Below, in pieces: positions 51,401-54,400 of a stretch of 64,000 bases of DNA. The notes under the pieces are model-generated. The model worked only from the letters and a program-made list of their open reading frames with translations, was not told the origin of the DNA and did no database searches. The position numbers and the translations under genes are program-made. Position 1 is the stretch's first letter. Every line of letters begins with the position of its first letter. Source of the DNA: Tubiluchus corallicola (taxonomy: Eukaryota > Animalia > Priapulida); NCBI GenBank assembly GCA_030141605.1, contig JAQGDQ010002374.1, positions 460,179-524,178 of the forward strand, given 5' to 3'.

Positions 51401-54400
51401 ATTATGATTACATAAAGAATTCATAGTTATTATTAAACAGAAGAAACTTGTAAATTAAATAACTTACCTTTTTCTGGCAAATTTCTAATGAGTGCATTTC
51501 CGTAAGGATCGCCATGTTTTCCGTCTTTAGAGAATGTACAGAAAGCGTCTTTGGTTGCCAATGTTTGTTTAACAATTTTTAGTGATCTCGTGCCTGTACT
51601 CATAATGTTATTGGTTTCTCTCGCACACCAAAAAATGGCGGTTTTTCAAATTTAATACCGCTAACAGCGAAGTGATAACGAATCAGAAGAAACAAGTTTT
51701 ACAGTTAGTTTAAAATAAAATAAATTGAATGTTCTTAATGAGAATAGGATTTTAAGTTGTAAAAGCTTATATTATAGTTAGAGTTTAGTCTGACTTTAAA
51801 TAAGTCTGCAGGCCTAAAATGGTGGTACATATAAAGTAGTCAGAGCTAATTTAGTAAGCTATTGCTAGGATTCTTATAAGAAAAAAACGAATAACTAAAA
51901 GCATAGCCATAACAAAACAAAAACACAAGTTACGCAACTAAAATCAAGCGCACTTACGCCTTGCCAAGTATCCTTGGAAAACATTGGCCAAGTCTTGTAA
52001 TTCAAATCATGCTTGAATGTCTCTTTTCTGTGCTGGCCAAACCCGTACAAATTTTCTGATGTCAAACGAGTAGCAATTTGAATGAACTGATCCTCAAATA
52101 TTAAGCCTCCTATTGTTGTATCCCATCTATGATAAAAGTGATAAAAGAGTGCACATGGCATCAGCGATGAAAACTTCAAAAACATCCGAAGACCCAAGAC
52201 ATTAACTCCTAACAGTTCCATTTGCAAATACTTCAGCTCTGCATTAGATCATAGAAATTAAACCAGCCCAATTAAATTCAGAAATTACTCACTTTGTAAA
52301 GTGCGAAGAAGCCAGAAGCATCATTAAATTCAAGGTTAGATGCACAGAAAAATTCCCAAGTTTTGTTGCTTTTAATAAAAAAATCCGAAGACCACTATTA
52401 AATTCAAATTTTTGGAATAGTGTGTATTTTTTCTACCATATGAGGTATATCACGTAATTTTTATTAGAATTTTCGGTTTTCAAATTTGAGCTATGACTTT
52501 CCAAACTTCCATCTTTTAATTCAAATACTAAATAGACCTACATCAAAAATATTACATGTATGTGTACTGAATAGAACAGCAAGCTACCATGATTTACAAA
52601 TGGGAATGAGATTGAAAACATTCAGGAATACAGATATATAATCAAAACAACCACATTAGAACTGGTAAAAAAACACAGAACGCATTAAAAATTGAAAAGT
52701 AAATGCTTAAAATATTATAATTGTAGGGAATTTCAAGGAAACGAAATAAAACTAGTTTGTGATAATTACATTGGTATTGGCATTTTCATGGAAAGAGAAG
52801 ATGGCTTAATGGTGCCCAAAATATTGAAAGCCCACCTCACTATACTGCTTACTCTTATACATCCATGGTGGAATAGGCAAACAATAATTTCTGTTTTGTG
52901 TACAAAAAACCAATAACACTTGTCCAGCTGTGTATTGACGTTACCAAACATTAATAACTTATGCTTGTATTGCATTTGTACAAAAAACTAAAAAGGCAAA
53001 GATCAAATTATGACTGTTTTGTTAATAAATAATGTGCAAAATAACATTTAGACGCATTTATTCAGGTACAAACGACTTAAATATCATACGTAACAAGTTT
53101 TTTAATTTTCCACTATTTTGCCTGCTTAGTGTTTAAAATTCTTACTTTTCAATTTGACCATTCAGTTGCATCAGTTTCAAAAAAAGCAGTTAGGCAAAAA
53201 TATGTGACAGTTAAAATTGTAATAATCCACATTATTCATTCATAGATCAAAGCAAAAGATTATTAGAATGCCAAGAAAATAGTATATAGTAATTAGTAGC
53301 AAGATCATTATCTAAATGGCAAAAAAACAGTAAATTGCTGTTAAATTAATACCTTTAAATCTAGTTATACGCCTGCAGTTTTTGTTTATTCATTTATGGT
53401 TTTGTCCTTTGCAAAACAGGACATTGTACAAGGCACTTGCTGCACTGTGTTTAAAATATTTACAAATTTAAAAAATGATTTAGAATTAAAACACAAAAAT
53501 TATAATCAATTAAAACATTACAAAAGAAAGAATGAAAAACTAAAGTCAGTAATTACAATATGAAAAAGATAATTTAAAATTAGAACAGTGATTTAAAAAT
53601 ATACATCGTTTTGATTTTTGAACTAGATGATCTTCTCTGGATTATTCTAAACAAATTCTGACACCTACAGACGTGACGCATCTGCAATTTACTTGTAAGT
53701 AAAGGGTGTTAAGCATGGTATCTTCTACTTAGAATGTTTGTCTGTGAAAAACTACAGCACAACTAACGCAACAGCTGCAGTGCAAAGCAATGGCAGCGGA
53801 GCACTTCCTAGTGCAGTAATGAAGCCTAAGATACCCAAGGTGCCAATAAACCAAATGACTTACTTCATGTACTCGCGAGGGATTTTTAGCATGCATTGGC
53901 CATGTCTTGTAGTTCAAATCATGTCTGAATTTTTCACGCCTGTGCTGACCAAATCCATAAAGATTTTGGTAATTCAGACGTGTAGCAATCTGAATGAACA
54001 TGTCCTCATATATAAGACCTCCAATTGACGTGTCCCATCTAGCCACATATAGCAACAAATTAGGAAAATAGGATTTGGAGGTTCCGGTACAAAATTTATC
54101 GGATAACTAGGAATCCTCATCACGTCATCTGGTTGTTTCAACTACTGACTACTAGTTTAGTATTTTACTTTAAGCCAAAAATAAGGTTGTAATTCTGAAA
54201 AAAGAGCTGGGTTAAGTGACTTAGAGACTGATACAGCCAAACAACTTTGTCAAAAGATATATTCTTATGATTGCAGCTAATTAGGCTTAAATATCGTAAA
54301 TTTCATGTTTATGATATTAAGAATCATGCATAACACATGAATAACGAATAAACAAACACTTATCCAAAAATACATACATTACTGTATTTGTGCTTTTTCT

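Follow-up and report, generated by a model that had tools for sequence, protein, structure and literature searches.

Two copies of one exon lie in tandem in a GH31 glucosidase gene of the priapulid Tubiluchus corallicola (assembly GCA_030141605.1, contig JAQGDQ010002374.1, positions 460,179 to 524,178), and the question raised by this locus is whether splicing uses them one at a time, so that the enzyme would be made with either of two substrate-binding loops. The stretch analysed, 64,000 nucleotides long and called the window below, contains the greater part of an animal gene of the SI/MGAM type that lies on the minus strand, is rich in introns and has at least two catalytic units. Judged by its sequence, the gene is a lophotrochozoan-like SI/MGAM-type GH31 alpha-glucosidase of predicted activity. 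The two copies are called exon A (upstream) and exon B (downstream), and the corresponding products form A and form B.

Exons were located by tblastn with homologues and their boundaries were then set at AG/GT sites. The resulting model comprised 37 exons, all bordered by AG/GT and free of stops, and encoded a protein of 1609 aa when exon A was used and of 1607 aa when exon B was, in the order GH31 unit 1, trefoil, unit 2. Pfam matches were obtained for Trefoil and the GH31 C-terminal domain; the 5' exons of the gene, the trefoil of unit 1 and the anchor fall outside the window. Both units carry the nucleophile and acid/base motifs as well as the Asp, Arg and His motifs of subsite -1. Donor 31998 was tried as the junction between the units, proved wrong and was replaced by donor 32051 together with exon 31620-31562. 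The features relevant to the exon pair are collected in Table 1.

Table 1. Position of the two alternative exons, the gene parts around them and the candidate RNA helix (window coordinates)
Feature	Position	Strand	Remarks
Upstream flanking exon	54378..54538	-	ends in phase 2; earliest exon of the gene visible in the window
Exon A, alternative	53864..54038	-	175 nt; end of N-terminal beta domain and first half of N-loop; His49, Asn52
Candidate selector arm, A-B intron	52841..52859	-	complementary to 50598-50616; moderate support
Exon B, alternative	51958..52126	-	169 nt; same module with the family residues Phe49, Asp52
Candidate docking arm, intron 3' of B	50598..50616	-	pairing would loop out exon B
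Downstream flanking exon	49603..49699	-	starts in phase 0; carries second half of N-loop
Remainder of GH31 unit 1	31562..49699	-	nucleophile motif across 45495/44540, acid/base motif in exon 42250-42117, both intact
Trefoil domain and GH31 unit 2	2210..29706	-	in frame with unit 1; final exons not located in window
Unit 2 N-loop exon, single copy	25636-25462	-	Asp kept; 175 nt

When a tree of 74 units was built with FastTree, the two units of the gene grouped with those of molluscs, annelids, brachiopods and nemerteans (support 0.95), as long branches that received no closer placement. The best matches were mollusc, annelid and brachiopod proteins, with 47-51% identity to unit 1 and 57-63% to unit 2, and ESM Atlas returned generic GH31 C-terminal clusters only. 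Since the nearest homologues have three units and the 5' end lies beyond the window, the claim of the original prediction that a two-domain gene yields three catalytic variants was overstated.

Several features of the two units are recorded here in their own right. The second barrel strand has a conserved Arg, and the residue following it is Trp in unit 1 (48093-48218) and Tyr in unit 2 (20754-20879). In isomaltase and GAA a Trp at this place accompanies alpha-1,6 activity, and the linkage preference of the two units may accordingly differ. A single 510-nt exon of unit 1 (32051-32560) spans a region divided among at least three exons in unit 2, which suggests intron loss in unit 1. Reading past donor 32051 stays open for about 30 codons (31961-32050), with a hydrophobic end followed by a stop and AATAAA-type signals; a single-unit form made by such read-through is conceivable but unsupported.

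The DNA above 55150 is filled by two mobile elements. A degenerate LTR retroelement on the minus strand (55150-58000, terminal repeats at about 57990-57600 and 55580-55160), with RNase H and integrase remnants, lies upstream of the first visible exon. A LINE-like element on the plus strand (59703-63817), antisense to the gene, has open stretches of 700 and 684 aa, which by eye appear to encode an endonuclease and a reverse transcriptase, and is possibly young. The intron 3' of exon B contains a high-copy repeat (51390-51800) of very high depth in both read runs. One of these runs matches introns and is therefore DNA, perhaps from the source sample; the other gave only 9 repeat pieces within 44300-54700. 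Minisatellites were found in introns at 7596-8682 (period 24), 30011-30992 (period 46), 36874-38278 (period 21) and 49971-50260 (period 32).

The coordinates and the minus-strand orientation of both copies were confirmed, as were their AG acceptors and GTAAGT donors, and each copy leads from phase 2 to phase 0 between the two flanking exons. Both lengths are of the type 3n+1, and therefore early stops result when the exons are included together or skipped together. In the 37-exon model joint inclusion produced a TGA at codon 11 of exon B (window 52096) and omission of both also led to a stop, whereas either exon alone left the frame open throughout. Exclusivity, as had been proposed, is thus enforced by the frame.

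Over the first 48 residues the copies are identical at 39 of 48 positions, and the differences between them are concentrated at third codon positions (7, 7 and 20 at positions 1, 2 and 3). Overall identity is about 76-77%, compared with 36-45% between either copy and the corresponding exon of unit 2, which places the duplication after the split of units 1 and 2. When the two regions were compared by blastn, the exons themselves gave the match (E 1e-28); the next one (E 0.005, minus strand) corresponded to an inverted repeat around exon B. The flanking introns of A and B are therefore not homologous, in agreement with the dissimilarity noted originally. No further duplicated exon of the gene was found in the window by an all-against-all comparison of open stretches and tblastn tiling. 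A phase-0 intron just 3' of the N-loop Asp appears to be conserved in many animals (loci L001-L038, short proteins P0009-P0150), so that the N-loop exon would be a natural module that bears one half of the loop.

The original prediction also held that both copies are under selection, and the rates of change between A and B were compared as pN/pS. In codons 1-48, pS was 20/27.3 (0.73) and pN 14/116.7 (0.12; Fisher p 3.6e-10), giving a ratio of 0.16 (bootstrap 0.07-0.30), far from 1. The selection is purifying, and the near saturation of synonymous sites indicates that the duplication is old. Exons A and B are thus an old tandem duplicate with purifying selection on both copies.

In exon B residue 52 is an Asp, which corresponds in the alignment to residue 203 of human NtMGAM and, at a single offset, also to Asp256 and Asp1124 in porcine MGAM; exon A has Asn at this position. 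The identification of the loop stood. According to the available parts of the sources, Asp256 and Asp1124 are N-loop aspartates that form hydrogen bonds with the +1 ring in cryo-EM structures (PMC12805851), and the same +1-subsite role belongs to D282 of GAA (PMC5653652) and to Asp303 of ER glucosidase II (PMC4742823). This aspartate is present in form B and in unit 2 and is replaced by Asn in form A.

To place these residues within the family, 549 homologous segments were collected, of which 440 were distinct and 190 were left below 80% identity. Position 52 was Asp in 178 of 189 such segments and Asn in 3; position 49 was Phe in 153 and His in 2 of 189, and the His and Asn of exon A were combined in none. 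Scored against 175 gap-free family segments, residues 1-48 of A ranked above 65 and those of B above 115, whereas over residues 49-52 exon A ranked above one segment only. The change in exon A is therefore concentrated in the loop. Across codons 49-56 the residue differs between A and B in seven of eight cases, positions 53-56 being variable in the family. In all, exon A departs from four positions that are at least 80% conserved in the family (Gln13 and Ser23 among them), and exon B departs from none of these. Both copies share Gln in place of Glu31 (97% conserved) and a basic residue in place of His34 (93% conserved); these changes must predate the duplication, and unit 1 was already a derived enzyme at that time.

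A second difference that had been pointed out, the greater length of the loop in A, was true relative to B (spacing of 9 and 7 residues, respectively) but unremarkable, since the exon of unit 2 is also 175 nt long. Spacings of 7, 8 and 9 residues occurred in 207, 91 and 62 of 428 homologous units, and loop length was rejected as the key difference because all three values lie within the normal range. A literature search for kinetics of an Asp-to-Asn exchange at the N-loop position found none.

Comparable exon pairs were sought among homologues. Among the 169 segments (150 representatives) of a first census, none had an A-like loop and nearly all scored better with B. The 18 isoform or allele pairs compared, which came from molluscs, an annelid, crustaceans and rodents, showed no swap of the A/B type. 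Tandem copies of the N-loop exon were absent from all 80 metagenome loci, 21 of which, several of them redundant, show both neighbouring exons; a first metagenome scan had likewise found no relative. A word-based protein search with exon A gave nothing among proteins of 103-2000 aa and one match of 58% among those of 30-102 aa. The loci and short matches examined were at most 64% identical to exon B, and all belong to distant relatives, with best identities of 50-63% at the level of whole units. The A/B pair is therefore not family-wide, a result that says nothing about uniqueness to a single species. In the same material two Peromyscus MGAM isoforms (P0186 and P0187) were seen to differ solely in a block at residues 1762-1803, a pattern that splicing between paralogous blocks could produce in rodents.

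The splice signals of the two copies are unequal. The acceptor of exon A scored -1.9, below all 34 acceptors used for comparison (lowest 1.0), and that of exon B scored 8.1; the comparison set lacked two acceptors, and the rank of A was independent of the choice of donor. This set and that for the helix described below were built with the earlier junction between units 1 and 2 and an approximate exon near 9500. The AG-free zone in front of exon A, 66 nt, was the third longest of 36. Steric exclusion between the two exons was rejected, as the intron between them is 1737 nt long.

The introns on either side of exon B can pair with each other. The two arms listed in Table 1 form 16 contiguous Watson-Crick pairs, 18 of 19 overall, and bracket exon B. 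This 16-nt complement was the longest among 35 exon-flanking intron pairs (at most 12 in the others) and has no further copy within the window; shuffled sequences attained 16 perfect pairs in 7 of 1000 cases, and at least 16 were counted in 2 of the other 629 intron pairs. By a simplified energy score that allowed GU pairs and mismatches, the helix was matched in 16 of 300 shuffles and ranked fifth of 35 intron pairs, in a ranking whose strongest background helix sits at a mis-set exon. The helix was found post hoc among three intron pairings. A mirror helix looping out exon A was at chance level (107/400), and a local hairpin at the selector arm was rejected (z 0.06). The helix around exon B is thus, with moderate support from pairing statistics, a candidate for RNA-pairing control, borderline by energy.

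Taken together, these data probably represent real mutually exclusive splicing of A and B, so far in one genome, and it is quite likely that the two exons are used alternatively. An error of assembly, or a piece left over from a paralogous gene nearby, might be suspected as the region is thinly covered by the one DNA run and neither A nor B is spanned by a listed contig piece; this is extremely improbable, given that copies 76% identical with unrelated flanks are not two haplotypes and that no other exon of unit 1 is duplicated. Exon A could also have been functional for long and only recently have become a silenced pseudo-exon that is always skipped. Its acceptor, the weakest of the gene, and its four private departures from conserved positions also fit decay, and no relative with A was found, the homologues searched being distant. 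Neutral decay was therefore simulated with exon B taken as the constrained copy (4000 runs per divergence level): 38%, 6% and 0.25% (10/4000) of copies remained as intact as A at 0.02, 0.05 and 0.1 substitutions/site, respectively, so that A cannot have been dead for long, whereas a very recent loss would fit. At 0.02 substitutions/site, however, both loop residues were altered in only 5 of 1540 equally intact copies. With the open frame, the consensus donor and the normal score of residues 1-48 also speaking against it, and the helix around exon B left to serve nothing, silencing of A is unlikely.

If both exons are used, the products need not differ in specificity. Form A might act as an off-switch, in which unit 1 folds and may bind glucans but is nearly inactive while unit 2 works. 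The prevalence of Asp at position 52 favours such a role, as does D282Y of GAA, a change at the same position that PMC11918499, in its accessible part, tabulates among variants of patients with suspected Pompe disease, and the need to fold would account for the conservation of residues 1-48. Asn is, however, a conservative change found in a few homologues, and the seven altered codons in 49-56 look more like remodelling than a single knock-out, even though 53-56 are variable in the family. An off-switch is accordingly a fairly unlikely explanation, although the data accommodate a muted isoform A almost as well as a change of specificity. It could further be imagined that the two enzymes are nearly equivalent and that the duplicate was kept for expression control or small tuning, considering the high identity of residues 1-48, the ability of Asn to form hydrogen bonds and the fact that loop lengths of 7-9 are all common; the very low rank of A over residues 49-52, at a position that is in contact with substrate in the structures solved, makes this quite unlikely.

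The explanation preferred, somewhat more probable than all these combined, is that A and B are mutually exclusive and that unit 1 carries either the standard N-loop (B) or an altered one (A), predicted to change the handling of the +1 sugar. Exon B would be the default, since its acceptor is ordinary, and exon A with its weak acceptor would be selected once B is looped out by the helix. Nonsense-mediated decay would presumably remove transcripts containing both exons or neither. The catalytic motifs are intact and common to both forms; form A should keep the chemistry of subsite -1 and grip the +1 glucose less well, and may be a less efficient maltase whose preference for linkage or aglycone is shifted. 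A further-reaching version, in which the helix-chosen N-loop exon would switch the specificity of a digestive glucosidase by tissue, stage or diet and form A, devoid of the +1 Asp, would act on a non-maltose substrate, is tentative and rather doubtful.

Animal glucosidases of the GH31 family diversify by duplication of whole units. Like the present gene, vertebrate SI/MGAM and the multi-unit invertebrate homologues have tandem trefoil and GH31 units, catalytic motifs and an N-loop, but in none of the homologues examined was there a second copy of the N-loop exon or a His/Asn loop, and the gene described here has both. The N2 and N20 forms of mouse ctMGAM reportedly reflect a choice between whole duplicated units, and mouse and macaque proteins contain tandem near-identical C-terminal units. 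The original prediction knew of no such switch in vertebrate SI/MGAM; this holds in so far as no switch of a loop exon was found, but N2 and N20, splice forms of a catalytic unit, do exist in the mouse, as stated in the available text of PMC7658089. Mouse ctMGAM resembles the present case in that alternative splicing provides differing versions of a GH31 catalytic unit; here, in contrast, a single exon of 56-58 codons is exchanged and one form lacks the +1 Asp, a residue retained by the mammalian units of the census. In the literature covered, largely open-access main texts, no GH31 gene was found to switch its N-loop exon, and the part of PMC3341394 at hand contains no passage on splicing.

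That splicing can switch enzyme pockets is already known, for coq-2 and for ACSL6, whose mutually exclusive gate exons are said to remodel the pocket of the enzyme. In coq-2 of helminths, annelids and molluscs the mutually exclusive exons 6a and 6e, of 134 nt, remodel the substrate pocket, according to the accessible sections of PMC7434440. The likeness lies in homologous internal exons, of a length that is not a multiple of three, that alter an enzyme pocket; coq-2 belongs to another enzyme family, is conserved across phyla and is experimentally proven, whereas the present case comes from one genome and from sequence data. Variable residues of mutually exclusive exons lie mostly near functional sites, as reported in the available portion of bioRxiv 10.1101/292813, whose main text, to the same extent, makes no mention of glucosidase or MGAM. 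As to control, exon 4.1 of Drosophila serpent has weak sites and needs a downstream long-range stem (PMC4691838, in the text available). The serpent 4.1/4.2 pair is similar in being duplicated, with a weak upstream exon and a helix downstream, but its competing stems on both sides are conserved and mutationally tested, whereas here one stem lies above chance by one of two measures.

If the preferred explanation is true, a GH31 glucosidase would have been diversified through one 58-codon exon aimed at the loop of subsite +1, and the gene would be a candidate for a two-exon RNA-pairing switch outside insects. As forms A and B differ in that exon only, they would constitute a ready-made natural pair for probing the part that the near-invariant N-loop Asp (Asp203 of MGAM, a drug target, and Asp282 of the Pompe enzyme) plays in specificity.
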